This document shows positions 38,806 to 55,550 of a stretch of DNA of 64,000 nt, one piece after another. The stretch is from an uncultured Chromatiaceae bacterium. Its GTDB lineage: Bacteria > Pseudomonadota > Gammaproteobacteria > Steroidobacterales > GCA-2729495. How positions within the stretch are numbered: position 1 is the stretch's first letter; each line of letters starts with the position of its first letter. The notes beneath the pieces were generated by a model. That model was not told the DNA's origin, did no database searches, and saw nothing but the letters and a program-made list of their open reading frames with translations. The DNA lies in the NCBI GenBank assembly GCA_964371995.1, contig CAYJPG010000003.1, positions 1,718-65,717 of the forward strand. Direction: 5' to 3'. The translations under genes were made by a program, and so were the position numbers.

Positions 38806-39672
38806 TTGATCCGCAGCATGACGGGTTTCGCACAGTCCGATACCGCTACCCCGCAGGGTGTTCTGCTCTGGGAACTGCGCTCGGTAAATAACCGCTACCT
38901 CGAAGTTCAGCTCAGGCTGCCGGAACTGTTCCGGCCCATCGAGAACGAAGTGCGGCAGCTGGCGGCTGCGCGGCTGGGACGCGGCCGTATCGAGGCCAGC
39001 CTCACCCTGCGCAACCCCCAGGGACAGCTGGCGGCCAGTCAGCTCAACCTCGCGCTGGCACGCCAGATCATCGGCCATGCGCGGGCGTTAGCCGATGAGA
39101 TCCGGAATACAGCTGCGCTGAACCCGCTCGAACTGTTGCGCTGGCCCGGTATCCTCGAGCAGGAAGAACAGGATCTTTCCGCCCTCTTGCCGATGGCCGT
39201 CGCCGGCTTTGACGCGGCATTGACCGACCTCGACGATGCCCGCGGGCGGGAAGGCGCGCGCATTGAGGAAATGTTCGAAAGACGACTGGCTGAAATCGAA
39301 AGTGGTGTTGCCGCGGTAGTCGCTCGCCTGCCCGCCGTGCTGACGCGTATCCGTGAACGGCTGGCCGAACGGATCGAGGCACTGGGCATCCCCGCCGACC
39401 GCGAGCGCCTGGAGCAGGAGATCGCGTTGCTCGCGCAAAAGCTTGATGTCAGCGAAGAACTGGACAGACTTACCGCCCATATCGCGGAGTTCCGCAGCAA
39501 TCTGCGCTCCGGCATCCCGGTCGGGCGCCGACTCGACTTCCTGGTACAGGAATTCAACCGTGAGGCCAATACCCTGGCCTCCAAATCTGCCGACGCAGAT
39601 ACGACCAGGCAGGCCGTAGACATCAAGGTACTGATCGAGCAGATTCGCGAACAGGTCCAAAATGTTGAATGA
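38806..39672 (+). CDS. yicC: YicC family stress-induced protein
   Basis: MIRSMTGFA...WELRSVNNRYLE...C-terminal EELDRLTAHI...GRRLDFLVQEFNREANTLASKS...VLIEQIREQVQNVE. Confidence 0.85.
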   Translation: MIRSMTGFAQSDTATPQGVLLWELRSVNNRYLEVQLRLPELFRPIENEVRQLAAARLGRGRIEASLTLRNPQGQLAASQLNLALARQIIGHARALADEIRNTAALNPLELLRWPGILEQEEQDLSALLPMAVAGFDAALTDLDDARGREGARIEEMFERRLAEIESGVAAVVARLPAVLTRIRERLAERIEALGIPADRERLEQEIALLAQKLDVSEELDRLTAHIAEFRSNLRSGIPVGRRLDFLVQEFNREANTLASKSADADTTRQAVDIKVLIEQIREQVQNVE

Positions 39673-39855: not shown

Positions 39856-41118
39856 ATGGCAAAGCTGACGGATATACAGATTCGCACCTGGATCAAGTCC
39901 GGCGACCGATTCGCAGGGAGGAGCGACGGCAAGGGACTGACTCTCGTGTGGCGGGATGACGACCGGGTGCCGATCTGGCGCTTTCGCTACCGCTTCGCGG
40001 GCAAGCCGCGAACGATGAACTTGGGTAGCTACACCGACCTCTCCTTGGCGAAGGCCCGCGATACTGTGGAGACACTTCGGGCGCAGGTGAAGCTCGGCCA
40101 CGATGTTGCAGGAGAGAAGCAGGAGCGGAAGAAGAAGGCTGTGGCCAAGATCGAGGCCGCGAGGTTGGTGCGCACGGTCGGCCAGTTGGCGGACGAGTAT
40201 CTGGAGCGCGTGATCATCGGCCGCTGGAAGCACCCGAATATCGTCCGCAGTCGCATCGAGCGAGACATCAAGCCGAACATCGGGCTGATGGACGCCAAGG
40301 ATGTCCGGCCGCCGCATATTGACGATTTATTGAAAAAAATCCTCGCACGCGGGGCACCTACCGTTGCCAACGACGTACTGCGATGGCTTCGACGCATCTT
40401 CAACTTCGGTATCAAACGGGGCTATTTGGAAATGAACCCGGCGGCAGCGTTTGACCTGTCGGATGCCGGTGGCCGGGAGGAAGCCCGCGACCGATGGCTG
40501 ACCCTGGATGAGTTGGTGGTCCTGTTCGAGGCGATGCGCACCACCGCCGGCTTCACCGTGCAGAATGCGCACACCGTCCGGCTGCTGCTGATGCTGGCCG
40601 TCCGCAAGCAGGAACTGATCGCCGCTCGCGTGGCCGAACTCAATCTCGACAATGCCATCTGGATGCTGCCAGCCGAACGGACAAAGACCGGCAGGGAGAT
40701 CGCTATCCCGCTGCCGCCGCAGGCCGTAGCCTCGCTGCGGGAGTTGATCCGCCTCGGCGAAGGAAGCGCGTACTTGCTCCCCGCGCGCAAGGCCCAGGAC
40801 CGGATGCTGCCCCACATACACGAGAACACGTTAAACCAGGCATTGGCAAAACTACGTTCAAAACTTGGGACCATGCCTCATTTCACGGTCCACGACTTTC
40901 GGCGGACCGCCAAGACGCAGTTGCAGGCGCTCGGTACTGCACCGTGGATTTCCGAGCGATGCCTGAACCACAAGCTCAAGGGGGTCGAGGGTCGCTATGA
41001 CCGTTACAGTTACATTGACGAGCGGCGCGAGGCCCTGGGGAAATGGGCCAACGTCCTGGAACGCTGCGAGCACGGTATCGGACAGGTGACACCGATTCGG
41101 AAGCGAGCGGGTAACTAG
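39856..41118 (+). CDS. int: tyrosine recombinase, P4-type integrase
   Basis: N-terminal arm-binding domain KLTDIQIRTWIKSG...GKGLTLVW...WRFRYRFAGKPRTMNLGSYTDLSLAKARD. Catalytic region ...HDFRRTAKTQL...LNHKLKGVEGRYDRYSY (the R..HxxR..Y pattern). Confidence 0.9.
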   Translation: MAKLTDIQIRTWIKSGDRFAGRSDGKGLTLVWRDDDRVPIWRFRYRFAGKPRTMNLGSYTDLSLAKARDTVETLRAQVKLGHDVAGEKQERKKKAVAKIEAARLVRTVGQLADEYLERVIIGRWKHPNIVRSRIERDIKPNIGLMDAKDVRPPHIDDLLKKILARGAPTVANDVLRWLRRIFNFGIKRGYLEMNPAAAFDLSDAGGREEARDRWLTLDELVVLFEAMRTTAGFTVQNAHTVRLLLMLAVRKQELIAARVAELNLDNAIWMLPAERTKTGREIAIPLPPQAVASLRELIRLGEGSAYLLPARKAQDRMLPHIHENTLNQALAKLRSKLGTMPHFTVHDFRRTAKTQLQALGTAPWISERCLNHKLKGVEGRYDRYSYIDERREALGKWANVLERCEHGIGQVTPIRKRAGN

Positions 41119-41213
41119 CCGAACGCGGCTTGTGGACTCAAGATATTGAGCCACTTGAGGTTTTCTGACATGACCTGCTCTCTTGTGGGGTGCCTCGGAA
41201 AGGGTGATTGATA

Positions 41214-41240
41214 GTTCAGCTCCTCACAACGGAGCTGAAC
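41214..41240 (+). promoter_or_regulatory. 10-bp-stem hairpin/palindrome covering the Shine-Dalgarno sequence of the AlpA-like gene
   Basis: GTTCAGCTCC-tcacaac-GGAGCTGAAC ends 1 nt before ATG 41241. The GGAG of the right arm is the only SD-like element. Confidence 0.5.
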
Positions 41241-41477
41241 ATGTCTGAAAGCAACATTCCGGCGCTGCCGGAAGCCCTGAGGAACTTCGACGCCCTCCCT
41301 GACTCGGCCGAGGTCCGGCAACCGGTCGTTGAGGCCTTGTTCGGCATCAGCGCTGCCAGCGTCTGGCGCTGGTCACGCGCAGGCCTCTTGCCAAAGCCGC
41401 GCAAACGCGGGCTGCGCGTCACCACCTGGAATGTGGGAGAGCTGCGGGCCACCCTTCTGATGAGGGGCGTACCATGA
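41241..41477 (+). CDS. AlpA-family HTH regulator / putative excisionase
   Basis: Start chosen at ATG 41241. VRQPVVEALFGISAASVWRWSRAGLLPKPRKRGLRVTTWNVGEL matches the AlpA/phage HTH pattern. Confidence 0.7.
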   Translation: MSESNIPALPEALRNFDALPDSAEVRQPVVEALFGISAASVWRWSRAGLLPKPRKRGLRVTTWNVGELRATLLMRGVP

Positions 41478-42139
41478 AATCCAGCAGGAGCCGCACCAAG
41501 CTCGCCGACCCGCACGTTCGTCTCTATGGGTGGGAGCTGGCGTCGCCGGCCTACCGCTCGCTCTCTCCTGATGCCCGCGCGCTGCTCGTGGATTTCCGCT
41601 CACTGTTCTCCGGACGCGAGAACCGCGTGTTCTTCAGCATCCGGGACATGATGGAGAAGCTTGGCGGCACTGGTCAGGCTCGGGCAATGAACGCCCGGGA
41701 TGAGCTGCTGGATCGCGGCTGGATTCGTGAGATCGAGCGTGGCAGCTTCCACCGCAAAACACGGCTCGCAACAGTCTACGCGCTGACCAATGAGCCGATT
41801 CACCAGCGAGATGGACAGGTCGCACCAAAGGACTATATGCGCTGGAAGTCACCGAAAACGACAGTAGTTAAATTGGATACCGACAGTACCGATGCTGAAT
41901 ACCGAGTTTCGACTGAAAAAGCCGACTTTGCCGCTCACGGTAGTGAATCCGGATACCGTCAACCGGAAAAAGCACGATCCGCGGTAGCCGCCACGGGTAC
42001 ACAGATAGGTTACCAAGCGCAGCTTGATGCCCTACCACTGCTCTATGCCGCCTTCTGGTACCCGATGACTGACCAGCAGCAGATCGGCGCCATCCTGTTC
42101 GGTCTACTGAACCTATGCGAAGCCGGATCGTCCGCATGA
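41474..42139 (+). CDS. island hypothetical protein (possible winged-helix/replication-type)
   Basis: ATGA overlap with the upstream gene. No motif recognised. Its position is typical of regulatory or replication genes in small integrative elements. Confidence 0.55.
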   Translation: MKSSRSRTKLADPHVRLYGWELASPAYRSLSPDARALLVDFRSLFSGRENRVFFSIRDMMEKLGGTGQARAMNARDELLDRGWIREIERGSFHRKTRLATVYALTNEPIHQRDGQVAPKDYMRWKSPKTTVVKLDTDSTDAEYRVSTEKADFAAHGSESGYRQPEKARSAVAATGTQIGYQAQLDALPLLYAAFWYPMTDQQQIGAILFGLLNLCEAGSSA

Positions 42140-42381
42140 TCTGCCACTGCGGCGGCCAGACAATCCGAATGCGCGCCCGCGAAGGCGATGCGACGCTGAA
42201 GTGGCATCAGTGCGGCGCTTGTGGTCGATGTGACGGGTTTGAGCTGCACATCTGCGATGTACAGGCCGCAAACGGGCAAGCCGCGCGTCGGGTGTCCCAT
42301 GATTCTGCCGTAATCGCACTCATGTCCAGGCGATACCGCAAACGTGGCCGAGTCCTCGCACCTACGGAGACTGCGGCATGA
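42136..42381 (+). CDS. small Cys4 zinc-ribbon protein
   Basis: Start chosen at ATG 42136 (ATGA overlap). MICHCGG...CGACGRC. Confidence 0.5.
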   Translation: MICHCGGQTIRMRAREGDATLKWHQCGACGRCDGFELHICDVQAANGQAARRVSHDSAVIALMSRRYRKRGRVLAPTETAA

Positions 42382-42989
42382 ACGACACGATCTCGGATGA
42401 CGAAAACACCGAGTGGTCGAAGACCATGTCCGCCCATGCTCTTGATCCGCAATTCAGCGCGGCCGCCGTTTTGGATAGCTTTTCGACTAAGGAGTTCGGA
42501 AATCTCGACCTGAACACCCTCATGAGCATCCTGACCAGTGCCTGCCAGCGCATCGCCAGCGGCAATCTCGCCGACATCGAAGCCATGCTGTTCTCGCAGG
42601 CAACGGCCCTTCAAAGCATCTTTACGATGCTCGCCATGCAAGCCAGCCGTTCTCCGTGCGGCTACAAGCAGGTAGAGACCTATCTCCGGCTGGCCCTGAA
42701 ATCTCAGAACCAGTGCCGAGCCACACTGGAAACACTGGCGGCCATGAAAACCCCTCGCCAGGTGGCTTTCGTCGCCCAGACCAACATCGCCCACGGGCCG
42801 CAGCAGGTAAATAATTTTCCCGCACAAGCAGCCGGCGGGGTGGCCCCTGTCGAAAACTCGCCGAACGAACTATTGGAGAACCAGCATGGCGAACGGATGG
42901 ACACTGGAACGGCGGGTGCGGCAAGCGGAACGGATCCGAAGCTGGCAGCCGTGGAAACGGTCAACAGGGCCCCGGACCGCAGACGGTAA
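42378..42989 (+). CDS. island hypothetical protein
   Basis: ATGA overlap with the upstream gene. No motif recognised. Confidence 0.5.
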   Translation: MNDTISDDENTEWSKTMSAHALDPQFSAAAVLDSFSTKEFGNLDLNTLMSILTSACQRIASGNLADIEAMLFSQATALQSIFTMLAMQASRSPCGYKQVETYLRLALKSQNQCRATLETLAAMKTPRQVAFVAQTNIAHGPQQVNNFPAQAAGGVAPVENSPNELLENQHGERMDTGTAGAASGTDPKLAAVETVNRAPDRRR

Positions 42990-43131
42990 GGCGCGAGCCG
43001 CCCGCAACGCCTACAAGGGTGCCTGGCGTAAAGAGCTGCGTCGGTTAGCACTCCTCCTGAGAGACGCACGCCATCAGACAGTCACCGTTCGATCAACCTC
43101 ATACGGTCAGATCCTGTCGCCCGAGCCTTGA
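42886..43131 (+). CDS. island hypothetical basic protein
   Basis: An 81-aa Arg/Lys-rich ORF (RIRSWQPWKRSTGPRTADGKARAARNAYKGAWRKELR). It overlaps the previous ORF by 104 nt in another frame. Confidence 0.45.
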   Translation: MANGWTLERRVRQAERIRSWQPWKRSTGPRTADGKARAARNAYKGAWRKELRRLALLLRDARHQTVTVRSTSYGQILSPEP

Positions 43132-43178
43132 AAATTTTGTACTCTGCTGCCTCCACTTGCTCAGGATTGGCCAATCCC

Positions 43179-43415
43179 ATGTCCACGAAAAGCAGCGGAG
43201 GCGAAATCCTCACGATCAAGGACGTCGCCAAGTACCTAAAGGTCACCGAACGGACGATCTACCGGCTCGCTGGAGCCAAGAAGATTCCAGCCTTCAAGGT
43301 AGGCGGAACGTGGCGTTTTTCGCGCGTCGACATCGATAGCTGGATCAGGCAGCAATCGACCAGCAAGCCGGAACGTGCCAGGCGCGGAACATCCCATAAA
43401 GGGGAGCAGCAGTAA
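43179..43415 (+). CDS. excisionase-family (MerR-like) HTH DNA-binding protein, first gene of the defence operon
   Basis: Start chosen at ATG 43179; the ORF-track start at 43128 is TTG. ILTIKDVAKYLKVTERTIYRLAGAKKIPAFKVGGTWRFSRVDIDSWI. Confidence 0.7.
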   Translation: MSTKSSGGEILTIKDVAKYLKVTERTIYRLAGAKKIPAFKVGGTWRFSRVDIDSWIRQQSTSKPERARRGTSHKGEQQ

Positions 43416-46120
43416 TGCTTGGACTGACTCTACGAGAAGAATTCCGGGGCAAACGCCTCAAGGGCACAGCCATCGAGCTGTCCAACGACCAGAACACGGG
43501 CGCGACCCAGATTGCGGCCAAGCAGTTTCTGGATATCACCTATCCGACGCACGATCTGCTGAAAGGCATCGAAGCTGTCGGCCCCAACCAGGGCCGCCCC
43601 GTGGTCGTGATCGGCGAGCGCGGCCTTGGCAAGTCGCACTTGATGGCCGCGCTCTACCATGCGGTGACTGACCCGTTGTCGACCCGCTCGTGGCTCAACG
43701 CCTGGGCAACCACACTGGCCGACGCCAGCATCGGCAAGATCGCCCTGCGCGACGGGATGCACGTCATCGGCGAAAGCCTGCATCGCCACCGCTACAAATT
43801 CCTGTGGGATGTCCTGTTGGAGAACCATCCGCACGGCACCTTCATCAAGGGCAAGTGGGACGGCCAGGGCGCGTCCAAGACCGAAATCCCATCCGACAAG
43901 CTCATCATCGAGCTGCTGGAGAACAAGCCGACGATGCTGCTGCTGGATGAGTTCCAGACGTGGTACGACGGCCTCACCAACACCAAGCAGTACCCGTGGA
44001 AGAACTGGGCGTTCAACTTCATCCAGATTCTTTCGGAAATCGCCAAAGAAAGGCCAGACCTGCTAGTGCTGGTGATCTCGGTGCGTAACGGTGGCAGCGA
44101 CGCATATCAGCAGGTTCATCGTGTCAACCCGGTCGCCATCGACTTCAAGGCAGGCGGCAGCGCTGAGCGCATCCAGCAGGATCGCCGCCGCATGCTGTTG
44201 CACCGCTTGTTCGACAACCGCTTGCAGATCGCCAGCGGCACCATCGAATCGCTGGTCGCGCAGCACGTCGCTGAATCCTTCCGCCTGCTCGATGTGCCGT
44301 CCGCCGAGCAGGAGCGCAAGCGCCGAGAGTTCACCGAATCGTGGCCCTATGCACCGCACCTGCTGCGCCTACTGGAAGAGCAGGTGCTGATCGCCACCGA
44401 TGCGCAGGAAACGCGCGACCTGATTCGCATCCTCGCCAACCTCTACAAGAGCGGTGGCGAGGCCGTGCCCGTGCTCACCGCCGCCGACTTCCGGCTGGAC
44501 GACGATACCTCGGGCATCGGCGCGCTGCTCGAAGCCGTCGCCAACCAGCACCACCGCACGCTGCGCGACAAGGCGCAGCAGAACATCATCTCGGTGCAGG
44601 AAGCGCGGCACGACCACGTCAGCGGTGCGCCACACCTACAGGAAATCATCGGCGCACTGTGGCTGCGCTCGATCGCCGTCGGCAACCTCGCCGGAGCTGA
44701 ACCCGCCACGCTGCAACTGGACATCACCCGTGACAAGCCGGTGGACGACAACGCTTTCCAGGTCGAGTTGGCGACCATCGTGGAGAACAGCTTCAACATT
44801 CATCAGGAAGGCACCAAGCTGTTGTTCCGTGAGGAAGAGAACCCGCGCGCCAAGCTCATGGCCTATGCGCGCAACGACAAGCTGTTCGCCGACGGGGCGG
44901 ATCAGGAGCAGCTCGTCAGGCAGGTGCGCTACGTCATCGGCGGCAGCGACGAGGTCGCAAAGACCTTCCGCGTGATCGCCCTGCCGAAGTCGTGGGTCAA
45001 TGATCCTTGGACAGCGCTCGATGAAGCCGAGCAACCCGACAAGTGGGACGACCGTCTGCCCATCCTCGTGCTGCCCGAGGAAGCCGACAAGCTCGACGCA
45101 ACGCTGGGCCGCTGGCTCAAAGACCAGTTGCAGAAGCGCCGCAACACCGTGCGCTTCCTGCTACCGCGCGCGGGCAGTACCAACTCCTTTATGGATCACG
45201 ACCTGCTCATCCTCACCCGCGCCGCAATGAAGGCGCAGGAATGGGGCGGTCAGAACCCCGAATACAAGAAGCTGCACAAAGAGTTCGAAAATACCCTGCG
45301 CGACAACCTCAAGAAGCGCTTCGACCGCTTCGCCGTGCTGCAACGCTGGAACTTCGCCGACCCCGCGCAGTGCAAGTTCAGCGTCGAACCTCTCGACAAG
45401 CAGGGCTCGCAGATTCCCGAAGCCATCGAGGAGGCGCTGACCGGCGACCTTTTCGTGCCCGAGGACTTCGAGGAACTGGTGATCGAGTACGCCAGCAACA
45501 ACGAATCGGTCGGTAAGCTGCTGCGCGAGTTGCAGGAGCCGCGCCCTGCCGGCCAGGACTGCATCCCGTGGCTCGGCGAAACGGCAATGAAGGAACGCCT
45601 GCTGCGTCTGTGCGCCAAGGGCAAGGTCGCCATCAACTTGCGCGGCATGGAGTACCTGCAAACGAGCCCAGGCGAAGACGAGGACACCGCGTGGCGTCGG
45701 TTGCGGCCCAAGCTCTCGCTGACGGGTCGCCACCTCGACGACGTGTTTGTGATGTTGCCCTCGGCAGTCCCAGCCACCGGCGGCTCCACGCCATCGGCTC
45801 TGACGCCAGTAGCACTTGGTGAGGCGCCGCCCACATCCGGCAATGAATTTCCCCCAGCTATATCGCCAACGTCCACGTCGCACCGCATCTTCGACGACGG
45901 CAGCAGCACCACCAAGCCGCGCACGCCGCTGTCAAACCCGGCTACGTCACCGCTCAACCTGATCGGCAAAATCGAGGGGTGGGGCATCGGCCCGGCCACC
46001 AAGGTCGCGGAGGTGTCCATCAAGGTATCAGCCGCCACCGGAGCGCAGCTCAAGGAACTGCTCAAGAAGCTGCCCGAAGGCATGAGCTTCGAGCTGAACC
46101 TTGAGAAGGAGGACGATTGA
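43415..46120 (+). CDS. DUF499-type P-loop ATPase (BrxC/HmaC-like)
   Basis: TAATG overlap with the HTH gene. Walker A VIGERGLGKSHLMAAL, Walker B PTMLLLDEFQTW. Size and overall layout are as I recall for COG1483/DUF499 proteins. A P/S/T-rich linker precedes a small C-terminal domain. Confidence 0.75.
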   Translation: MLGLTLREEFRGKRLKGTAIELSNDQNTGATQIAAKQFLDITYPTHDLLKGIEAVGPNQGRPVVVIGERGLGKSHLMAALYHAVTDPLSTRSWLNAWATTLADASIGKIALRDGMHVIGESLHRHRYKFLWDVLLENHPHGTFIKGKWDGQGASKTEIPSDKLIIELLENKPTMLLLDEFQTWYDGLTNTKQYPWKNWAFNFIQILSEIAKERPDLLVLVISVRNGGSDAYQQVHRVNPVAIDFKAGGSAERIQQDRRRMLLHRLFDNRLQIASGTIESLVAQHVAESFRLLDVPSAEQERKRREFTESWPYAPHLLRLLEEQVLIATDAQETRDLIRILANLYKSGGEAVPVLTAADFRLDDDTSGIGALLEAVANQHHRTLRDKAQQNIISVQEARHDHVSGAPHLQEIIGALWLRSIAVGNLAGAEPATLQLDITRDKPVDDNAFQVELATIVENSFNIHQEGTKLLFREEENPRAKLMAYARNDKLFADGADQEQLVRQVRYVIGGSDEVAKTFRVIALPKSWVNDPWTALDEAEQPDKWDDRLPILVLPEEADKLDATLGRWLKDQLQKRRNTVRFLLPRAGSTNSFMDHDLLILTRAAMKAQEWGGQNPEYKKLHKEFENTLRDNLKKRFDRFAVLQRWNFADPAQCKFSVEPLDKQGSQIPEAIEEALTGDLFVPEDFEELVIEYASNNESVGKLLRELQEPRPAGQDCIPWLGETAMKERLLRLCAKGKVAINLRGMEYLQTSPGEDEDTAWRRLRPKLSLTGRHLDDVFVMLPSAVPATGGSTPSALTPVALGEAPPTSGNEFPPAISPTSTSHRIFDDGSSTTKPRTPLSNPATSPLNLIGKIEGWGIGPATKVAEVSIKVSAATGAQLKELLKKLPEGMSFELNLEKEDD

Positions 46121-47109
46121 TGGCACTGACCGCCAGCGCCTTGCAGGCCCTGACCCAAGGCTCCGACGCGGATGCTTGGCGCGTCATTGTTGAGCAGGCC
46201 GTCGAGATCGCCCGAAAGCCGCTGGCCGCAGGCAATTCGCCCAGCGAAGTCGTCGGGCGCGACCGCGAAATCGGCGCACTGGATCTGTTCCTCTCTTCCA
46301 GCGGCTGGGACTTGTGGCACGCCTTCGGCGACAGCGTGGAGCGCACCTCGGATCGCCTGACACGCTGGTGGGCCGAACCCTTCAGCGCCAAGGCGGTGCT
46401 GATCCTCGACGGCCTTTCCCTGCGCGAACTGCCGTGGCTGTTGCAGGGCGCGAAGGTGCGCGGTTTCACCACGCACGAGGTCGCTGCCTGCGCCTCCGAG
46501 CTGCCGGGCGAAACGGATGAGTTCGCTCGCGCGCTCGGCTTCGCCAGCCGCAGCAAACTCCAGAACAACGGCGGCGGCCTCGCGCACAAGCTGCAAGCCG
46601 CCAGCACCGAAACCGTCGACTTGCCGTGGAAGGACTGCCAAGCCCTGATCGGCAGTGCGCCGAACCAGGTCTTCTGGCACCACTGGCCCGACGCCAAGCT
46701 GCACGACGGCGCAGGCGCAGGCCAGGGGCTGGAGCCGTTAACCAAGGACGTGGCCGAGCAGTTGTCCAGCGATGACTTCTGGGCCTTCGTCGAGCGCCTC
46801 GCCACCGGGCGGCGGCTGGTCATCACCTCCGACCACGGCTACGCGGCCACCGGCCACTTCTCCGATGCCGATAGCGAGGTCGGCCATTTCCTCAAGCAGA
46901 CGTTTGGAAGCTCGCGCAGCAAGGCGGGAACCGGCGACACCGGCCCATTCGTGCCGCCAGTGGCATTGCAGATCAACAGCCCTCACGGCGCGCACCTGTT
47001 GGCCCTGGGCCGCAGGAAATGGCGCAGCCAGGGCGGCTACCCGACGCTCACGCACGGCGGCCTGTCGCTGCTGGAAGTGCTGTCGCCTTTCGTGGAGATC
47101 AGTAAATGA
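46120..47109 (+). CDS. short PglZ-like alkaline-phosphatase-superfamily protein
   Basis: TGATG overlap with the ATPase gene. Ordered landmarks: AVLILDGLSLRELPWLL, ELPGETDEFA, LVITSDHGYAATG, THGGLSLLEVLSPFVEI. Confidence 0.6.
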   Translation: MALTASALQALTQGSDADAWRVIVEQAVEIARKPLAAGNSPSEVVGRDREIGALDLFLSSSGWDLWHAFGDSVERTSDRLTRWWAEPFSAKAVLILDGLSLRELPWLLQGAKVRGFTTHEVAACASELPGETDEFARALGFASRSKLQNNGGGLAHKLQAASTETVDLPWKDCQALIGSAPNQVFWHHWPDAKLHDGAGAGQGLEPLTKDVAEQLSSDDFWAFVERLATGRRLVITSDHGYAATGHFSDADSEVGHFLKQTFGSSRSKAGTGDTGPFVPPVALQINSPHGAHLLALGRRKWRSQGGYPTLTHGGLSLLEVLSPFVEISK

Positions 47110-47594
47110 CATACACGGATGACGAATTGACCCGACTGATCGGCTGCAAAAAACGCATTTCCCAGGCGCCGAGGAAGGAGATGCGCACAGAGGGCCAGAT
47201 GCAGCGTAACGAATTGGAGCTTGAGTCGTTGGACGGCAAGCACTCGTTCCGTGTTTTCATGCGTCAGAGCCTGCAATTTTCTGAAAATTTTTCCATCGGG
47301 ATGGACTACCTGCCCAAGGATGAACCGGGCAGTTTCTGTCTCCTGCGCTGCAATGGAAGACATGGTGGACACAAGGTGCATCCACACCATCTGCATTGCC
47401 ATGTTCATCGCAGCAAGGCCGAAGACGTCAACGCTGGGCTTCGAGTCGAACGACATATCGACTCCACAGTGGAATATGCAGCTTTTCGCGATGCGCTGCG
47501 TTATTTCCTGCTCAGGACGAATGTGCAATCAGCGGATTTGTCCCAACATTTTCCGGGCATCACCCAACCTGACATGTTTGAAGACGAGGCATAG
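47106..47594 (+). CDS. hypothetical His-rich protein (embedded, lower GC)
   Basis: ATGA overlap with the upstream gene. LLRCNGRHGGHKVHPHHLHCHVH cluster. No family recognised. Confidence 0.55.
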   Translation: MTYTDDELTRLIGCKKRISQAPRKEMRTEGQMQRNELELESLDGKHSFRVFMRQSLQFSENFSIGMDYLPKDEPGSFCLLRCNGRHGGHKVHPHHLHCHVHRSKAEDVNAGLRVERHIDSTVEYAAFRDALRYFLLRTNVQSADLSQHFPGITQPDMFEDEA

Positions 47595-47596
47595 CC

Positions 47597-48370
47597 ATGA
47601 AAGCCATCGACCTACTCCAAAAACAATTCGGTGACTTCGTTCGTCTGGAGGAAAAGCGCCCGAACATCCAGCAGGTTTATGCGCCTCTCTACCATGAAGA
47701 CGGCGACATGATGGATCTTTTTCTCGATCTTCCCAAAGATGCCAATCTGACGGAAGACAAAGAGATTCGTATTTCCGATCACGGCATGACCTTGATGCGG
47801 CTCTCCTACGGCTTCGATCTGGATACGCCCAACAAGGAAAAAATATTCCAGCGCATCCTGCTCGAAAACGGTGTCAGCGAGAACGAAGGGGAAATCTATC
47901 TTGAAACCACGTCGGGTTCCCTATATCCGGCGTTGATGCAGTTCTCCCAAGCCATTGGCAAGGTCTGCAACATGCGCTTGTTCCGGCGCGAGACATTGCA
48001 CAGTCTGTTTGAAGAAATGCTCGGAGATTTTATCCGGGGAACGCTTGCTCGCTATCAGCCGACACCTTCGATTTGCCCCATTCCCGACAGGGACGATCTG
48101 GAAGTGGATTGGCAGTTCAAGCCGAATGGCACTCCCTTGTATCTGTTCGGCGTCAAGGACAACGCCCGCGCCCGGCTATCCACCATCAGTTGCCTTGAAT
48201 TTCAGCGCAACAAGCTGCCTTTCCGCAGCATGATCGTGCATGAAGACTTCGACAAGATCTGGCGCAAGGACAAGGCACGCCTGACATCGGCCTGCGACAA
48301 GCAATTCACATCGCTGGATGATTTCAAACAAAACGCAGAGCAATACCTGCTGCGTGAAACAGGGCATTGA
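47597..48370 (+). CDS. hypothetical protein (embedded, lower GC); resembles my recollection of DUF1828/DUF1829 proteins
   Basis: 2-nt gap from the upstream stop. N-terminal pattern YAPLYHEDGDMMDLFLD...IRISDHGMTLMRLSYGFDLDTPNKEKIFQRILLENGV. The family guess is unverified. Confidence 0.5.
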   Translation: MKAIDLLQKQFGDFVRLEEKRPNIQQVYAPLYHEDGDMMDLFLDLPKDANLTEDKEIRISDHGMTLMRLSYGFDLDTPNKEKIFQRILLENGVSENEGEIYLETTSGSLYPALMQFSQAIGKVCNMRLFRRETLHSLFEEMLGDFIRGTLARYQPTPSICPIPDRDDLEVDWQFKPNGTPLYLFGVKDNARARLSTISCLEFQRNKLPFRSMIVHEDFDKIWRKDKARLTSACDKQFTSLDDFKQNAEQYLLRETGH

Positions 48371-48376
48371 CGGCTG

Positions 48377-51300
48377 ATGGCCACCAAAAAAGAACTTCTC
48401 CAACAAGAAGTCGCGAAAGCCGTCGGCGCAGGCAAGGCGGTCGCGCTCGAAACGGTTGACTTCAACGACCCGAACCGCCCCAAAACCTGCCTGGAAGTGG
48501 ATTTCCCGATCCTACCGGTCAATCAGGTGGCGATCATCGAAGGCAACGCGGGCAAGCCGATCTACCAGATGTCGAAGTGGTGGGCGCGTCGGCGTTCCAG
48601 CGTGTTCCGCTCGATGCTGATCGCGGCGGCCACCAAAGCGCCGGACGACCCTTCGCACGCAGCCAAGCTGGTGTGGGACAACTACTACGCCAACCACCAG
48701 AAGAAAGGCGCGTTCAAGCACCTGAAGGTCGCCGACATCTTCATGGGCGGTGGCACCACGCTGGTGGAAGGCTCGCGCCTTGGCATGCAGATGGTCGGCA
48801 ACGACCTCAACCCGGTCGCGTGGTTCGTGGTCAAGCAGGAACTCGCTAATGTCGATCTGGAGCAGGTGAAAAAACTCCTCGCCGACATCGAGGCCGAGGT
48901 CAAGCCGCAGATCATGCCGTACTACTACTGCGACGGCCCGCAGGGTGAAAGGGGCACGTGGACGCACCTGCCGACGAACAAGGCAATGCCCGCCGACTTC
49001 GACCCGCTCGCCATCCCGCGTGACGAGCGCAAGGACTACCGCTACGAAGGCCCGGAGATCATCTACACCTTCTGGGCCAAGCACGGCCCCTGTCAGGTGA
49101 CGGGCTGCGGCCACCGGACGCCGATCATGACCAGCCCGGTGATGGCGGTGAAGACGCTCACCGTCAAGCATTGGACACACACCTGCGGCAAGTGCGGCGA
49201 AGCCTTCGACGTGGAGGAAGAAGCCGCGCGCATGGCACCCGATGCGCCGTTCTACGTCGCGCCCACCGAAGCTCCGTATTCCGTGCTCGACCGCAAGAAG
49301 GGCGTGATCTGCCCGCACTGCGGCCACACCGCAATGGTGAATCTCGGCAAGGGCAAGAACAAGAAGGTGGAACTGAGCCTGTTGGTCCATCCGCAATGGC
49401 TGGCGGGCGAGGCGAAGCAGGATGCAAACGGTCAGCCCTACGGCGGTTCGGCGCAGGACGATGTGGCGGCGACCACCCGTTGGGATGCGGCACGCGCTGC
49501 GAAGATTCGTCTGCTGGAAGTGCGCGGCGCGCTGCCGGATGAAGTGATTGACCCGGAGACGGGTGTCTCCTTCGCACCCAAAAAGGGCACGGTGCCGAAG
49601 AAGTCGCACTACGCCTGCTCGGCGTGCGGGACCGTGCAAGATGTCCTGGGCACCATCAAGGCGACGGGCAAGACGGGGCCGATGGCGGCCTACGCGGTGC
49701 AGGGTTACTCCCCGAAGCGAGATGAAGCGGGCAAACCCTACAGCGGTCGCTTCTTCGCCGCCCATGACGCGGCACACGCCAGGCAATGCGCGGCTGCATT
49801 CGCGGAGTGGGAAGCGCGGAAGGATGACGACCTAAAGGCCTATTGGCCGCGCTCAGAAGTGCCTTTTGGATTCATGACGCACATGAACAATGGCGGCATT
49901 CCAAACCACGGCTATACCCATTGGTGGACTATGTTTAACCCCCGCCAGTTGCTTGCGCAAGCGCAGATACTGAAGGGAATTCTGACTATTGGAGACTATC
50001 CTTGGGGGGTTAGAGAGGCGCTTCTAGGAGCATTCCAGCAGATCGTCCGCTATCGGAACATGTTCTGTTTCTGGGATATCAACTACGACAAGTTGGTGCC
50101 CCACATGAGCAATAACAACTACCACCCCAAGACGAACGTAGTCGAGGGATCTTGCTTTGGTGTCATGGGGAGTGGGCGCTGGTCTTCTTGTGCAGATGGC
50201 GTCTTGGAGGGGCTCGAATGGGGGGGGAATCCTTATGAGCTCGTTAGCCCCCAGTTTGTGTCTAGCGTTCGAAGCGACGGGGCTGAGAAGTCAACTAGCG
50301 AGAAAGTCTTTACTGGAGATCCAGTTCTTGCCGTGACGGTTCGTCAGGGTTCTTCCACTGAGCTGGATAGCATTGATTCCAGCAGCCTCGACCTGGTCAT
50401 CACCGATCCGCCCTTCGGCGGCCTTCTGCACTATTCGGAGCTTGCAGACTTTTTCTACGTTTGGTTGCGTCTTGCGCTGAAGGACAAGTACCCGGACTAC
50501 TTCACCGCCGACTACACGCCAAAGTCACTGGAGGCTGTGGCCAACAAAGCGCGCGAACCGGAAGACCCGGACGGGTTTTATCAGCGGCTGCTCACCCAAT
50601 GCTGGCGCGAAGCGCATCGTGCGCTCAAGCCCAGCGGCATCCTGGCCTTCACTTTCCACCACAGCGAAGATGAGCCGTGGGTGGCAGTGCTGGAATCGCT
50701 GTTCGACGCGGGCTACTACCTCGAAGCAACGTACCCCATCCGCTCAGATGAGACCAAGGGAGAAGGCGGGAAGCCCGGGACCTTTGGCTCGCAGACTATC
50801 GAGTACGACATCATCCACGTCTGCCGCAAGCGCACCGAAGAACCCAAGGCGGTGAGTTGGGGCCGGATGCGCCGCGAGGTGATGGCCGACGTGCGCCAGT
50901 TGCAGGCGATGTTGGAGAACCACGCCAAGGAAGGCTTGCCCGCCGCCGACATCCAGGTGATCCGGCGCGGCAAGGCGCTGGAATACTTCTCGCGTCACTA
51001 CGGCAAGGTGTATGTGGACGAAGACCGCACCATCTCCGTGCGCGACGCGCTGGTGGGCATCAACCAGCTCATCGACGAGGACGCCGACAAGGGCAAGGAA
51101 CCGCCGCCGGTCAACGCCGAGCCGATCACGCGCCAGTTCCTGCGCACCTTCGGCAACGCGCCTGAGCTCAAGCGCGACCAGTTGCAAAAGTTCCTCAAGG
51201 GGTCGATCACCACGCCGGACGAGTTCGCGCAGCGCGGCTGGTGTGCGGAGAAGAACAAGGTGTTCACCCGCACCGATGCGCTGGAATTCGCCCGCGAGTG

Positions 51301-51595
51301 GTCGGGCAAGCATCGCCGCAAACTGACGTCCGACCTGGATCAGGCGCTGGTGCTGATCGGCGCGTGCTTCGACGGCAGCGGCATCAATGCGTCGGACACG
51401 CTAAAGAACGACAACTTCAAGCCGCACGTGGCGCTGAAGCCCTTGCTGGAATGGCTGCACCGCAACGGCCCGGATCAGACCACCCGCAATGCGGCCTCGC
51501 GTGCAGTGTCCATCCACAATGTTTGGCACGCCAGCCAGGTGCCGCAGCCCGCGCAGGCTTCCTTGTTCGATGACGATGGGGAGTACGAGCGATGA
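48377..51595 (+). CDS. DUF1156-type Zn-ribbon DNA methyltransferase (PglXI/HmaB-like)
   Basis: N-terminal DFPILPVN...SKWWARRRS. SAM motif ADIFMGGGTTLVEG. Four CxxC-type pairs (CQVTGCGH, CGKCGEAF, CPHCGH, CSACGT). Catalytic LVITDPPFGG. Confidence 0.85.
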   Translation: MATKKELLQQEVAKAVGAGKAVALETVDFNDPNRPKTCLEVDFPILPVNQVAIIEGNAGKPIYQMSKWWARRRSSVFRSMLIAAATKAPDDPSHAAKLVWDNYYANHQKKGAFKHLKVADIFMGGGTTLVEGSRLGMQMVGNDLNPVAWFVVKQELANVDLEQVKKLLADIEAEVKPQIMPYYYCDGPQGERGTWTHLPTNKAMPADFDPLAIPRDERKDYRYEGPEIIYTFWAKHGPCQVTGCGHRTPIMTSPVMAVKTLTVKHWTHTCGKCGEAFDVEEEAARMAPDAPFYVAPTEAPYSVLDRKKGVICPHCGHTAMVNLGKGKNKKVELSLLVHPQWLAGEAKQDANGQPYGGSAQDDVAATTRWDAARAAKIRLLEVRGALPDEVIDPETGVSFAPKKGTVPKKSHYACSACGTVQDVLGTIKATGKTGPMAAYAVQGYSPKRDEAGKPYSGRFFAAHDAAHARQCAAAFAEWEARKDDDLKAYWPRSEVPFGFMTHMNNGGIPNHGYTHWWTMFNPRQLLAQAQILKGILTIGDYPWGVREALLGAFQQIVRYRNMFCFWDINYDKLVPHMSNNNYHPKTNVVEGSCFGVMGSGRWSSCADGVLEGLEWGGNPYELVSPQFVSSVRSDGAEKSTSEKVFTGDPVLAVTVRQGSSTELDSIDSSSLDLVITDPPFGGLLHYSELADFFYVWLRLALKDKYPDYFTADYTPKSLEAVANKAREPEDPDGFYQRLLTQCWREAHRALKPSGILAFTFHHSEDEPWVAVLESLFDAGYYLEATYPIRSDETKGEGGKPGTFGSQTIEYDIIHVCRKRTEEPKAVSWGRMRREVMADVRQLQAMLENHAKEGLPAADIQVIRRGKALEYFSRHYGKVYVDEDRTISVRDALVGINQLIDEDADKGKEPPPVNAEPITRQFLRTFGNAPELKRDQLQKFLKGSITTPDEFAQRGWCAEKNKVFTRTDALEFAREWSGKHRRKLTSDLDQALVLIGACFDGSGINASDTLKNDNFKPHVALKPLLEWLHRNGPDQTTRNAASRAVSIHNVWHASQVPQPAQASLFDDDGEYER

Positions 51596-52089
51596 GACAA
51601 CTGCGCGACCCAGTCTGGCAGGTGCGCGGCACCAGTTGGGTATGGGACGAAGAGGCGCGCAACCAGGTCTGCACGGCCAGCGAGGTTTGGAGCCTGCGCC
51701 AGTTCCTGCGGGCGAAAGGAAACTGGCCGGATGCTCTTCCGAGCAACGGTGGCAGGACGCTGGTGGTGGCCGGTCTGGACGGAAGCCTCGATCTGCTGAC
51801 ACCGACGGATGCCGAAGTGTGGCTAGGTGATGCGATCAAACCCGCCATCCTGTCCTTTCAGGACGATTGGGGAAGCGACGGCGCACTGGTGTTCTGGCTA
51901 CCCGGCGGCCACAACCGCGTCAGGGCGCACGCCGCCACCGATGAGGTGGGCTGGCTGTGTCACGCACCCCATGGGCATCAGATCGACCTCGGTCGCATCC
52001 TGTGGGGCCAAGCCAACGAGTACCCGCAGGAAATCCTGCTGCACCACGGTGGCAAGCCCGCTGGCCTGTTCCACCTGCGGATTACTTGA
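51592..52089 (+). CDS. hypothetical protein coupled to the methyltransferase
   Basis: ATGA overlap with the methylase stop. 165 aa. GC content is like the rest of the operon. No motif recognised. Confidence 0.55.
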   Translation: MRQLRDPVWQVRGTSWVWDEEARNQVCTASEVWSLRQFLRAKGNWPDALPSNGGRTLVVAGLDGSLDLLTPTDAEVWLGDAIKPAILSFQDDWGSDGALVFWLPGGHNRVRAHAATDEVGWLCHAPHGHQIDLGRILWGQANEYPQEILLHHGGKPAGLFHLRIT

Positions 52090-52099
52090 GGGCGGCTGA

Positions 52100-54874
52100 G
52101 TGACGGCAGAGATTCAGTTCCAACCCGGCGAGCGCATCACCCACCACGAATACGGTCAAGGTGTCGTCCTCGACCCGGCGCGTGACGGCTATCTGCGTGC
52201 GTTTTTCGGCGTCGGCGAACGCCGGGTGCCGGTGGCGTCGCTGCGGCGCGAACTAACGCGCACCGAGCGTATCCTGCGCACCGTGGATGGCGGCGCAGAG
52301 CGGTCGCGCAAGGCGTGGCTGGCCTATGAAGCGCATGCACTTCCGGTGATGGAAAGCGCCTCGGCGCTGACCTCGGCCAAGATCGATCTGCTGCCGCATC
52401 AGGTGGTGCTGACTCACCGGATTGCGACCGCCTCACCCCGGCGTTACCTGATCGCCGACGAGGTGGGGCTAGGCAAGACCATCGAAACCGCGCTGATCCT
52501 TCGCGAGCTGGCCAGCCGGGGTGAATTGACTCGCGCGCTGATGGTGGTGCCTGCGGGCCTCGTGAACAACTGGCACCGCGAGCTGAACGAGGTGTTCAAC
52601 CTCGACTTCGAGGTGTTCGGTTCCGAGGGCGACATCACCGACCGCAAGACCAACGCCTTCGCCAAGCACGACCGGCTGATCGCCAGCATCGATACGCTGA
52701 AGCGCCCGGCACGCATCAAGCGCCTGCTGGACGCGCCGCGCTGGGATCTGGTGGTGTTCGACGAAGCGCATCACCTCACGGCCTACAAGACCGGCGGCAA
52801 GGTGCGCAAGACCGAGAACTACAAGCTGGCCGAGGCGCTGAAAGATCATTCGCGCGACCTGCTGCTGCTGTCGGCCACGCCGCACCAAGGCAATCACTTC
52901 CAGTTCTGGATGCTGGCGCAACTGCTGAACCCGACGCTGTTCCGCAGCCCCGAGGAGATGCTGGAGGAGAGGCACCGGCTCAACACAGTGATGTTCCGCC
53001 GCACCAAGGCTGACGCCTGTCAGCCCGATGGCTCGCCGCTGTTCGCGCGGCGCTGGGTTCATACCGAATCCTTCGTGATGAACCCAGCCGAACGGCTGTT
53101 TTACGAGAAGCTGCGCGAGTACTTGGAGGATGGCTTCGACCTCGCACGCCGCCAAGGCAACCAGGGGCGTGCGCTGGGCTTCCTGATGGTGATCTTCCAA
53201 AAGATCGCGGCGTCGAGCTTCGCCGCCGTGCGCCGCACCCTCAAGCGCCGCATGCTGATGCTGACGCTGCACGAGGCGTTCCTGCGCGACAAGGAACTGG
53301 ACATCGAAGGCCGCGAGCGCCTGACCGAGGAGGCGCGCGAGCTGATCCACGAGGAGTTTGGACTGCCGCGCGACAGCGTCGGGCGCAGTGAGGTGGATCG
53401 CGTGCTGGCCGATCTGAAGTACCGGCTGGTCAAGAAGCTGGACGAAGAGGCGCTGGAGATGGCCTCCGACCCCTATGCCAGCGAGTATTCCGCCACGCAC
53501 GCGGAAGAAGCCGCTTCGGCGGTGGTGAACCTGCATCTGCCCGAGGAGCGCCTGCGCATCGGCGACCTGCTGCGCGTGTTCCCGGCAGAGCGCGAAACCA
53601 AGATGCAAAAGCTGCTCGATGGCTTGGGCACGCTGTGGCGGCAGAACCCCAACGAGAAGATCGTGATCTTCGCCACCTACCTCGGCACGGTGGACATGAT
53701 CGCCCGGGAGATCGAACAGACCTTCCCCGGCCAGGGCGTCGCCGTGCTACGCGGCGGTGATCACGGCGCGAAAGTAGCGGCGGAGCGGCGCTTCCGCCTG
53801 AAGGACGGCCCACGCGTGCTGGTCTGTACAGCGGCCGGGCGCGAAGGTATCAACCTCCAGTTCGCACGCGTCTTGTTCAATTTCGACCTGCCGTGGAATC
53901 CGATGGACATGGAGCAGCGCATCGGGCGCATCCATCGCTATGGCCAGAGCCATACCGCGCAGGTCTACAACCTCGTGCTCTCGGACACCATCGAAGGCCG
54001 CATCTTCCTGCTGCTCGACGAGAAGCTCACCGAGATCGCCCGCACGGTCGGCAAGGTGGATGACCAGGGCAACGTGGCCGAAGACCTGCGCGCGCAGATT
54101 CTCGGCCAGTTGTCGGAACGCTTGAACTACGACCGGCTGTATCAGGAGGCGCTGTCCGACCCAGAGCTGAAACGCACGCAGGTGGAGCTGGAAGCGGCGC
54201 TGTCGAACTCCCGCGAGGCGCGGCAGGTGGTGTTCGATCTATTCCAGGACCTCGATGGATTCAGCCTCGACGACTACAAGCCCTTCTCGGACGTATCGTC
54301 CAGTCTGGATCGGTTGGTGCGCTTTTTCTCGGTGGCGGTCGCGGATCGCCAGCAGAAACTGGTGAAAGTGGACGATGCCACCTACGACCTCGTTACCGCC
54401 GAAGGCTCGCGCCGCGTCCGCTTTACCTTGAACCGCGAAGCGGCGACGAATCAGGACGCGTTGCAACTGATGGGCTTGGATCACCCGTTGGTGCAAGAGG
54501 AACTGGGGCGCTGGCGCAGCGTGCCACCGGAGGAAATCGGTATCGCCGTGTCGGGCGACGTGGACGAGCCGGTACTGTTGTCGCTGTGGATGGTTGAGGC
54601 GTCCGTCGGCAACGGGGAGCGCCGTGTGGTGGTGCAGCCCATTGCTGTGAAACTGGATGGCACACGCATCCCGGCGGTCGAACGCCTGTGTGAGCAATAC
54701 CTACAGGCTCCACCCGCCACACCGGTGTTTCGACCGGAACAGCGAAGCGAGCTGTTTACCCTGGCCGTTGAGCCGACCTTACAGCGGGAACTGAAGCACA
54801 AGGGAACCGCGAATGGCGATGGCAGCTATTCTGCGGAACTGATCGGGTATGTGGAGATCGCCCCACAGCAGTGA
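52100..54874 (+). CDS. SNF2-family helicase (BrxHII/HmaA-like) with an N-terminal Tudor/DUF3553-like module
   Basis: GTG start 10 nt after the upstream stop. LLPHQ, motif I DEVGLGKT, motif II FDEAHHL, III LLLSATPHQG, VI QRIGRIHRYGQ. N-terminal PGERITHHEYGQGVVLD...AFFGVGERRVPVASL. Confidence 0.9.
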   Translation: MTAEIQFQPGERITHHEYGQGVVLDPARDGYLRAFFGVGERRVPVASLRRELTRTERILRTVDGGAERSRKAWLAYEAHALPVMESASALTSAKIDLLPHQVVLTHRIATASPRRYLIADEVGLGKTIETALILRELASRGELTRALMVVPAGLVNNWHRELNEVFNLDFEVFGSEGDITDRKTNAFAKHDRLIASIDTLKRPARIKRLLDAPRWDLVVFDEAHHLTAYKTGGKVRKTENYKLAEALKDHSRDLLLLSATPHQGNHFQFWMLAQLLNPTLFRSPEEMLEERHRLNTVMFRRTKADACQPDGSPLFARRWVHTESFVMNPAERLFYEKLREYLEDGFDLARRQGNQGRALGFLMVIFQKIAASSFAAVRRTLKRRMLMLTLHEAFLRDKELDIEGRERLTEEARELIHEEFGLPRDSVGRSEVDRVLADLKYRLVKKLDEEALEMASDPYASEYSATHAEEAASAVVNLHLPEERLRIGDLLRVFPAERETKMQKLLDGLGTLWRQNPNEKIVIFATYLGTVDMIAREIEQTFPGQGVAVLRGGDHGAKVAAERRFRLKDGPRVLVCTAAGREGINLQFARVLFNFDLPWNPMDMEQRIGRIHRYGQSHTAQVYNLVLSDTIEGRIFLLLDEKLTEIARTVGKVDDQGNVAEDLRAQILGQLSERLNYDRLYQEALSDPELKRTQVELEAALSNSREARQVVFDLFQDLDGFSLDDYKPFSDVSSSLDRLVRFFSVAVADRQQKLVKVDDATYDLVTAEGSRRVRFTLNREAATNQDALQLMGLDHPLVQEELGRWRSVPPEEIGIAVSGDVDEPVLLSLWMVEASVGNGERRVVVQPIAVKLDGTRIPAVERLCEQYLQAPPATPVFRPEQRSELFTLAVEPTLQRELKHKGTANGDGSYSAELIGYVEIAPQQ

Positions 54875-55028
54875 TCGGAACGGAGGTTACCGTGGTCTCT
54901 TGCCTGAGCGCTTAGGCATGGTCCGAGGATAAGCGGGGCCGGCTGAAGTTAATGCGACACTTCCGACCGTCGGGTCACGGTGGGGCTTCAATGAGCCAAA
55001 GATTTTCTGGAGTTCGGCCATCGGCACA

Positions 55029-55409: not shown

Positions 55410-55530
55410 AATCTCCCTCCCCTAGCCAAGGCAGCGCGGGGGAGTGTAAGGGGCGTTTTCTCCACAGCACCCCAAGCGACCATAGCGACGAAAGGCTGAA
55501 GCTGAATTTCCTAGGACATGCCCCAAATGC

Positions 55531-55550
55531 GTGTACCCGGGCGTGTACCC
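55531..55550. repeat. two GTGTACCC 8-mers at the right end of the island
   Basis: GTGTACCC at 55531 and 55543, the reverse complement of the GGGTACAC copies at the left end. GTGTACCCGG (55531-55540) is the exact inverse of CCGGGTACAC (39835-39844). Confidence 0.6.

Follow-up and report, generated by a model that had tools for sequence, protein, structure and literature searches.

Can a protein of 329 amino acids (aa) be a PglZ, and what would it do in the operon that encodes it? Both questions are raised by a gene at positions 46120-47109 (plus strand) of a 64,000-nucleotide stretch of DNA from an uncultured Chromatiaceae bacterium (contig CAYJPG010000003.1), the whole of which was analysed and is called the window below. 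A first-pass annotation had described the product as a stripped-down catalytic core of PglZ, the alkaline-phosphatase-fold protein of bacteriophage exclusion (BREX) systems, belonging to an Hma-type system. The first half of this description stands, as the family profile, the hhalign comparison and the AlphaFold model searched with Foldseek all agree with it; the second half proved imprecise. We consider it very likely that the gene encodes an active PglZ of a Type-3 BREX-related (BR) system. The fuller reading, namely that this is a catalytically competent two-metal (Zn/Mn) phosphodiesterase, a minimal stand-alone PglZ and one of the five core subunits of a Type-3 BR system on an integrase-bearing island, is in our judgement likely.

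A small PglZ-like protein and its relatives

The interval translates to an uninterrupted 329-aa frame. Its ATG at 46120 overlaps the stop codon of the upstream gene, which encodes a 901-aa ATPase, and its own stop codon overlaps the ATG of the next open reading frame (ORF). The ORF listing stretches the frame to a TTG at 46117; homologues start with the same M-A-L as the product read from the ATG. A database search returned 2,827 proteins at E ≤ 1e-3, the top 120 of which are 84-92% identical, and an exhaustive search yielded 365 relatives among representatives of 50%-identity clusters. The full-length relatives listed measure ~320-360 aa, so shortness characterises the whole family and does not come from truncation. 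Matches on this scale go far beyond chance, and the gene is real and under selection.

Four motifs had been quoted in the first-pass annotation, in the order expected for an alkaline-phosphatase/PglZ core, and all of them are present in that order in the translated frame. The first, AVLILDGLSLRE (residues 92-103, nucleotides 46393-46428), contains the predicted metal ligand D97, the second, ELPGETDEF (residues 127-135, nucleotides 46498-46524), contains T132, the third, VITSDHGY (residues 234-241, nucleotides 46819-46842), contains D238-H239, and the last, THGGLSLLEVLSPFVEI (residues 311-327, nucleotides 47050-47100), contains H312. A fifth landmark had been missed. It reads W186-H187-x-W-P-D191-x3-H195 (residues 186-195, nucleotides 46675-46704) and would provide the ligands of the second metal.

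How well these residues are conserved was assessed in alignment A2, which comprises 36 full-length representatives sharing 30-60% identity with the 329-aa protein. D97, S100, P129, D191, D238-H239-G240-Y241, H312-G313-G314 and E319 are invariant. Position 132 is Thr in 35 relatives and Ser in one, and both H187 and H195 are His in 34 of the 36. Across the homologues, the residues of the motifs are thus fully or almost fully conserved. The part of the protein that precedes the motifs has invariant residues of its own, W20, W63 and W66 among them.

From this pattern we predict that D97, D191, H195, D238, H239 and H312 are metal ligands and that T132 is the nucleophile. The set D..T..D-x3-H..D-H..H is what we take to be the two-metal site with Thr nucleophile of nucleotide pyrophosphatase/phosphodiesterases (NPPs). 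The second-metal motif has the D-x3-H form, as in nucleotide pyrophosphatases, while aligned canonical PglZ proteins carry Asp or Glu at or beside the aligned position. The D-x3-H form may be an ancestral feature, or it may reflect a different metal preference.

The A2 profile, when searched against PDB sequences, matched a BREX PglZ (9nv3_C; E=2.2e-8) and, with E-values between 4e-5 and 1e-4, entries for PorX; a larger alignment, A5, was less sensitive (2.4e-5 vs 2.2e-8). With hhalign, A2 was compared with six canonical PglZ proteins of 593-853 aa from genomes of the same class. The comparison gave a probability of 96.6%, E=6.8e-10 and 229 aligned columns, with ~21% identity in the core, and paired residues 87-328 of the query with 440-706 of an 836-aa PglZ. 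All catalytic motifs fall in register: D97 lies opposite the Asp of IISDAMRYE, T132 opposite the Thr of LPSYT and D191 opposite the Asp of RIDHTGD, and the DHG and HGG motifs are matched by those of the canonical proteins. Signatures specific to PglZ are kept as well, namely D-G-L-S-L-R-E (D-A-M-R-Y-E in canonical proteins) and H-G-G-x-S-x-x-E. The spacing between the Thr and the His is 205 residues in two canonical PglZ, close to the 203 residues that separate T538 and H741 in the Escherichia fergusonii protein (PMC12205998). Many distant members of the family, moreover, bear precomputed matches to Pfam PF08665.

The accepted AlphaFold run used an alignment of 95 sequences reaching down to 35% identity and including a divergent subfamily with members from Methanococcoides, Moorella and Nostoc. 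The resulting model has a predicted local distance difference test score (pLDDT) of 90.3 and a predicted template modelling score (pTM) of 0.91. It begins with five helices (residues 5-13, 16-32, 40-60, 63-72 and 76-84), in line with the earlier remark that some 90 residues of helical-looking sequence precede the first motif. Core strands at 91-96, 117-125, 162-166, 183-187, 232-236 and 321-328 alternate with helices, and a three-strand insert, or cap (267-269, 282-287 and 290-296, judged from secondary structure), lies between the DHG and HGG motifs. Each catalytic residue occupies a position in the model that is typical of the alkaline-phosphatase fold, either just past a strand or at the N-terminus of a helix. 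The model thus suggests an N-terminal five-helix bundle (residues 1-86) followed by a catalytic core of PglZ/alkaline-phosphatase fold (87-329). Its strand count and insert agree with three PglZ synapomorphies listed in PMC12839542.

Foldseek against the PDB placed PorX in the top 17 positions (E 7e-12 to 3.5e-9, probability 1.00), followed by the Acinetobacter BREX PglZ 9zn5_B (1.8e-7) and then by phosphonoacetate hydrolase and ENPP/autotaxin at ~1e-5. The structural check that the first-pass annotation had suggested therefore returned PorX and then BREX PglZ as best matches.

Several results weigh against this assignment. The profile search that had been suggested alongside gave a split outcome: the family profile and hhalign match PglZ, but a direct hmmscan against Pfam and PADLOC finds no match for the 329-aa protein, and Pfam PglZ gives none even at E ≤ 10. 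A match to NCBIfam BREX_PglZ_3 (E=9e-4) is confined to the last 36 residues (293-328) and lies far below the cut-off, and PF08665 matches five of the 36 A2 relatives, weakly. An initial AlphaFold model, built from just 49 sequences of 52-92% identity and hence from a shallow alignment, reached a pLDDT of 68 and was discarded; Foldseek with that model had PorX as best match at a non-significant E=0.25. In addition, single-sequence phmmer against the PDB returned nothing relevant, and a six-frame PF08665 search of the source genome returned nothing at E ≤ 1.

Could the protein then be something other than PglZ, such as a generic NPP- or phosphonoacetate-hydrolase-type enzyme of the alkaline-phosphatase superfamily that happens to lie in the island, or a frame with fortuitous motifs? 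The missing Pfam and PADLOC matches would fit this, as would the weak match of one relative to Pfam Phosphodiest and the D-x3-H motif, which is the NPP form and not the D-x3-D/E of Type-1 BREX PglZ. Yet the profile and hhalign matches go to PglZ proteins only, the PglZ signatures are kept, and the Foldseek E-values put PorX 10^4 to 10^6 times ahead of NPPs, with BREX PglZ ahead of them too. The gene is also in strict synteny with ATPase, methylase and helicase genes across phyla. We find this alternative hardly credible, and the PDB profile, Foldseek and hhalign results effectively refute it.

The comparison with Type-1 BREX PglZ (E. fergusonii/Salmonella, PMC12205998; Acinetobacter, PDB 9nv3 and 9zn5) reveals what the small protein retains and what it lacks. 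Their cores are homologous, agree in the Asp / Thr / Asp / Asp-His / His layout and both carry the HGGxSxxE signature, and both proteins stand in methylation-based defence with a BrxC-like ATPase. The Type-1 proteins are 830-890 aa long. As the suggested alignment to BREX PglZ bears out, the 329-aa protein is without their ~440 N-terminal residues, which include the BrxB-binding part, and without their C-terminal immunoglobulin-like domain of ~130 residues; what it has in their place is an 86-residue helical bundle of its own. The two also differ in the second-metal motif, D-x3-H here and D-x3-D/E there.

In structure, PorX (PDB 7PV7, 7PVK, 8TED) comes closest, with E=7e-12 and a query-normalised TM-score of ~0.58. 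It shares the PglZ-type alkaline-phosphatase domain, in which PorX has a Thr nucleophile and two Zn, and it cleaves oligonucleotides. PorX differs in its N-terminal receiver domain, absent from the 329-aa protein, and in its role in type IX secretion signalling; the identity between the two is 11-14%.

The family is rare. Among 400 further genomes drawn from across the phylum, four were seen to have it; the source genome has a single copy, and near-identical copies occur in different orders. This rare and patchy distribution, together with the near-identical copies, points to horizontal spread. Members are also found in genomes of Pseudomonas aeruginosa, Burkholderia, Xanthomonas and Stenotrophomonas. 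NCBI records name the family "hypothetical protein", and a few UniRef entries read "PglZ domain-containing" or "Alkaline phosphatase". WP_176328879.1 and WP_074456053.1 are two of its NCBI accessions. Pfam PF08665, PADLOC-DB v2 and NCBIfam all miss it at their thresholds, which leaves an annotation gap.

The surrounding operon

Three BREX-related subtypes centred on a DUF499 protein were described in Nucleic Acids Research in January 2026 (PMC12839542; preprint October 2025). Type-1 BR corresponds to PADLOC Hma and has a helicase-nuclease fusion, whereas Type-2 BR adds a small protein and a PLD-helicase and was later characterised as MANTIS. Type-3 BR, reported from 569 taxa of which 134 are archaeal, has a BrxHII-like helicase without nuclease and a near-universal, catalytically intact stand-alone PglZ; an inactive STAND protein is present in 82% of taxa, and some of the methylases carry two 4-Cys zinc fingers (PMC12839542). 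The authors proposed that this PglZ is the primary nuclease.

In the window, the PglZ gene belongs to a string of overlapping genes that all run in one direction. The locus matches Type-3 BR in every feature tested apart from the STAND protein, having a DUF499 ATPase, a DUF1156/PglXI methylase, a nuclease-less BrxHII-like helicase and a stand-alone PglZ. The ATPase gene (43415..46120, plus strand) encodes a BrxC-like AAA+ protein of 901 aa that matches Pfam DUF499 with 34 bits (cut-off 23) and AAA_16, with Walker A (GERGLGKS) at residue 67 and Walker B (MLLLDE) at residue 174; its match to PADLOC HmaC is weak (2e-4). It adjoins the PglZ gene and is translationally coupled to it. The methylase, an N6-adenine DNA methyltransferase of 1072 aa and DUF1156/PglXI/HmaB type (48377..51595, plus strand), matches PADLOC HmaB (1.4e-34), PglXI (6e-23) and DUF1156_MTase (3e-20), NCBIfam DUF1156_antiphage (1e-24) and Pfam N6_N4_Mtase. 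Its DPPF motif lies at residue 677, and zinc-finger-type CxxC motifs at residues 270, 312 and 414.

The SNF2-family helicase (924 aa, 52100..54874, plus strand) is best matched as BrxHII-like (PADLOC BrxHI|BrxHII 4.3e-102; Pfam SNF2-rel_dom and Helicase_C). The HmaA profile covers it over HmaA positions 75-651 of 1176 only. No Pfam domain and nothing nuclease-like was found in helicase residues 651-924, and no PLD motif in the whole protein. A Tudor domain, reported in the first-pass annotation and described for these helicases, was not found by Pfam in residues 1-90.

In 80 related genome loci, defined by a PglZ 75-94% identical to ours, the genes keep to one order, namely ATPase, PglZ, methylase, 165-aa protein and helicase. 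The ATPase is 73-93% identical and syntenic in those loci that contain it. The same five genes in the same order, for proteins of nearly the same sizes (~935, 320, 1200, 166 and 930 aa), are also found in Methanococcoides alaskense, Moorella mulderi and a Nostoc.

The match to the published Type-3 BR PglZ (exemplar KAA0250883.1) is close: the same single domain, an intact metal site, a six-stranded alpha/beta/alpha core and a three-stranded cap insert. In both, a separate PglZ gene stands beside those for a DUF499 ATPase, a CxxC-bearing methylase and a nuclease-less helicase, in Bacteria and Archaea. We found no substantive difference between the two. The exemplars KAA0250883.1 and EKO9556875.1 are absent among the cluster members listed. 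That DUF499 systems contain a minimal stand-alone PglZ is thus right but not new, since both this family and the setting of its genes had appeared in print by January 2026 (PMC12839542), and the window adds just one more instance of the Type-3 BR PglZ.

Other known systems fit less well. Hma (Type-1 BR) and MANTIS/Gao_RL (Type-2 BR) have a DUF499 ATPase, a DUF1156-type N6-methylase and an SNF2 helicase in common with the locus, and probably share its logic, in which the ATPase would assist methylation at asymmetric sites and DNA without the modification would be restricted. They differ in having a PD-(D/E)xK or PLD nuclease fused to the helicase and no PglZ, and Type-2 also adds the small MtsB. 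We rejected Hma itself, as the nuclease half of HmaA is absent, HmaC scores just 2e-4 and a PglZ gene is present; the helicase of the locus, without a nuclease domain and best matched as BrxHII, is what makes the "Hma-type" label imprecise. In canonical BREX (Types 1-6), PglZ is a multidomain protein of ~600-900 aa with an N-terminal region and C-terminal immunoglobulin-like/wHTH domains, and it is encoded with BrxA/BrxB/BrxC/PglX. This was rejected because the PglZ has just 329 aa and the ATPase is of DUF499 type, not DUF6079/BrxC; Pfam and PADLOC scans found no BrxA or BrxL in the locus. The third rejected candidate was MADS, an eight-gene system (mad1-mad8) that includes a kinase and two ATPase-nuclease modules, MAD3/MAD4 and MAD7/MAD8. 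Of its models only that of the helix-turn-helix (HTH) protein, MAD1, passes, with weak matches to mad2 (5e-9) and mad8 (1.7e-3), and the rest of the operon differs. The operon has no OLD/Toprim-type or kinase genes.

The fifth core gene (51592..52089, plus strand) encodes a conserved protein of 165 aa and keeps its place in all related loci that extend far enough to include it. Orthologues from an archaeon, a Firmicute and a cyanobacterium (L096:14581-15081, L097:14572-15072 and L098:14675-15172) are 165-166 aa long, hold the same position and are 22-31% identical, with the conserved motifs VWQRRGSS, SLRQ, T-L-V-V-A-G-L-E and L-W-G. We regard this protein as a candidate for the "inactive STAND" (BrxB-like) partner of Type-3 BR, a component that was assigned by structure and called fast-evolving (PMC12839542). 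It has no match in Pfam or in the PDB profile search. Two hhalign runs against a four-sequence BrxB alignment, which count against the candidacy, were negative (probability 0.1%), and the resemblance to BrxB at the level of motifs is unconvincing (TLVVAGLDG/VLFLSGVGE; ALVFWLPGG/PTIMFFPG).

The first-pass annotation had placed the PglZ gene between those for the ATPase and the methylase. The ATPase gene does adjoin it, but two low-GC cargo genes precede the methylase: an ORF of 162 aa (47106..47594) and a DUF1828/PDC-M24B protein of 257 aa (47597..48370; Pfam DUF1828 2.6e-17, PADLOC PDC-M24B 2.4e-14), both on the plus strand. This cassette (47106-48370) has a guanine-cytosine (GC) content of 52%, against 61-67% in the core genes, and occurs in only one of the 80 related loci (L072). 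It is not part of the conserved core. In general, the junction between PglZ and methylase genes is empty in 43 of 76 related loci, where the genes are adjacent, and filled in the other 33.

Possible roles of the protein

What PglZ does is a matter of debate in BREX biology. The Type-1 protein is known to bind Zn and shows activity with either Mn or Zn. It cleaves bis-p-nitrophenyl phosphate (bis-pNPP) and oligonucleotides, and nicks and cuts double-stranded DNA; in the E. fergusonii protein the substitutions T538A and H741A abolish or reduce activity (PMC12205998). This activity contributes to defence and has no obvious role in methylation, and PglZ binds BrxB, which in turn contacts BrxC (PMC12205998, PMC13326643). 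For MANTIS it was reported that the methylase is placed on asymmetric sites by the DUF499 ATPase, which loads it, and that recognition of an unmodified site triggers the helicase-nuclease (preprint 10.64898/2026.09.23.753747).

By analogy with MANTIS, the DUF499 ATPase and the N6-adenine methylase of our locus would mark the DNA of the host and detect sites that lack the modification. The small PglZ would then supply, in trans, the nicking or cleavage of unmodified invader DNA, with the helicase providing translocation. The helicase of this subtype has lost its nuclease domain, from which we infer that cleavage would fall to PglZ. Docking of the small PglZ to the ATPase would probably involve its N-terminal bundle, the 165-aa protein or both, much as BREX PglZ docks through BrxB. 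That PglZ acts specifically as a DNA nuclease effector is, we think, an evenly balanced proposition, suggested by its Type-1 counterpart.

There is evidence that pulls the other way. The nuclease role follows from analogy and from the "missing nuclease" argument, and we found no experimental work on the Type-3 BR subtype in the literature. BREX was reported not to degrade phage DNA wholesale (PMC13326643). Furthermore, both PglZ and PorX also cut oligonucleotides, cyclic as well as linear; in vitro, the substrates of BREX PglZ include cA2-cA6 and linear dinucleotides (PMC12205998). The physiological substrate could therefore be a nucleotide.

This leads to a different proposal, in which PglZ is active but works on a small nucleotide or oligonucleotide, or on a phosphoprotein, and tunes or switches the system as PorX does, while the DNA is attacked by other means or stays uncut (a replication block). 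Beyond the biochemical data above, the structural ranking speaks for it, as the best matches are those to PorX, an oligonucleotide-cleaving response regulator, and many loci have separate nuclease or NADase modules next to PglZ (SIR2-HerA, GmrSD). However, the conserved five-gene core contains no cyclase, kinase or other signal-generating gene, and it must be self-sufficient in the 43 of 76 loci that lack a cargo module. The sister subtypes, moreover, bear a DNA nuclease exactly where this one has none (PMC12839542). Taken together, we see this proposal as unlikely but a serious contender to the nuclease effector.

A further option is that PglZ is mainly structural, an obligatory subunit that assembles or activates the ATPase-methylase complex, with catalysis secondary. 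Methylation by PglX in Type-1 BREX requires BrxB, BrxC and PglZ (PMC13326643), PglZ being needed there irrespective of its nuclease activity, and the invariant W20, W63 and W66 of the N-terminal bundle suggest a conserved protein interface. A pure scaffold, on the other hand, would not keep seven catalytic residues invariant or nearly so in relatives of 30% identity from Bacteria and Archaea. We therefore rate a mainly structural role as improbable. It should be stressed that a structural role is compatible with the role of an effector and does not exclude it.

More speculatively, and with decidedly little probability in our view, the 329-aa PglZ, perhaps together with the 165-aa protein, might be an ancestral, self-contained PglZ module with the NPP-like D-x3-H motif. 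Rather than bulk DNA, its substrate in vivo might be something like the end of a DNA molecule, a site that is nicked or hemimethylated, or an oligonucleotide. If this were true, the enzyme would settle a long-standing question, that of the role of PglZ in BREX-type immunity.

Whichever role applies, a catalytic-core PglZ of 329 aa is an easier object for structural work, enzymology and mutagenesis than the 830-890-aa BREX proteins, and the sister subtype MANTIS was recently reconstituted. The remaining value of the locus is that it offers a compact enzyme from a family that standard annotation resources miss.

Island, regulator and variable regions

The operon lies on an island of ~15.7 kb (39856-55600) inserted between yicC (38806-39672) and gmk (55637-56293). 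Its left end is marked by a P4-type tyrosine integrase (39856..41118, plus strand; Pfam Arm-DNA-bind_3, Phage_int_M and Phage_integrase). No tRNA gene is present anywhere in the window. Two unassigned ORFs between the integrase and the operon (41474-42139 and 42378-42989) were not found in the related loci.

Directly upstream of the ATPase gene, an HTH_17/excisionase-type DNA-binding protein of 95 aa is encoded (43128..43415, plus strand; NCBIfam antiphage_MADS1 81.9 bits, cut-off 80; Pfam HTH_17 8e-19). It is likely the regulator of the operon, and about half of the related loci were found to have it upstream of their ATPase gene. Since it passes the MAD1 equivalog model and the operon is not MADS, automatic annotation would mislabel it. 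This family of HTH regulators seems to be shared by different methylation-based defence systems.

The methylase is the least conserved core gene in the related loci, with 67-98% identity compared with 73-97% for the flanking genes. The gene has 61% GC overall and contains a stretch of 52.7% GC within 49830-50400. Both the divergence and the low-GC stretch are consistent with swapping of the target-recognition region.

The cargo found between PglZ and methylase genes in other related loci is varied (L006, L012, L015, L017, L022, L027, L032, L049, L063 and others). It includes SIR2 with HerA (358 and ~600 aa), GmrSD (581 aa), an AAA ATPase with a ~874-aa protein, a 934-aa protein, single proteins of ~310 aa, and a 253-aa protein with a small ORF of 128-190 aa. 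More speculatively, and again with little probability in our view, the junction may be a dedicated docking slot into which second-line defence modules are swapped.

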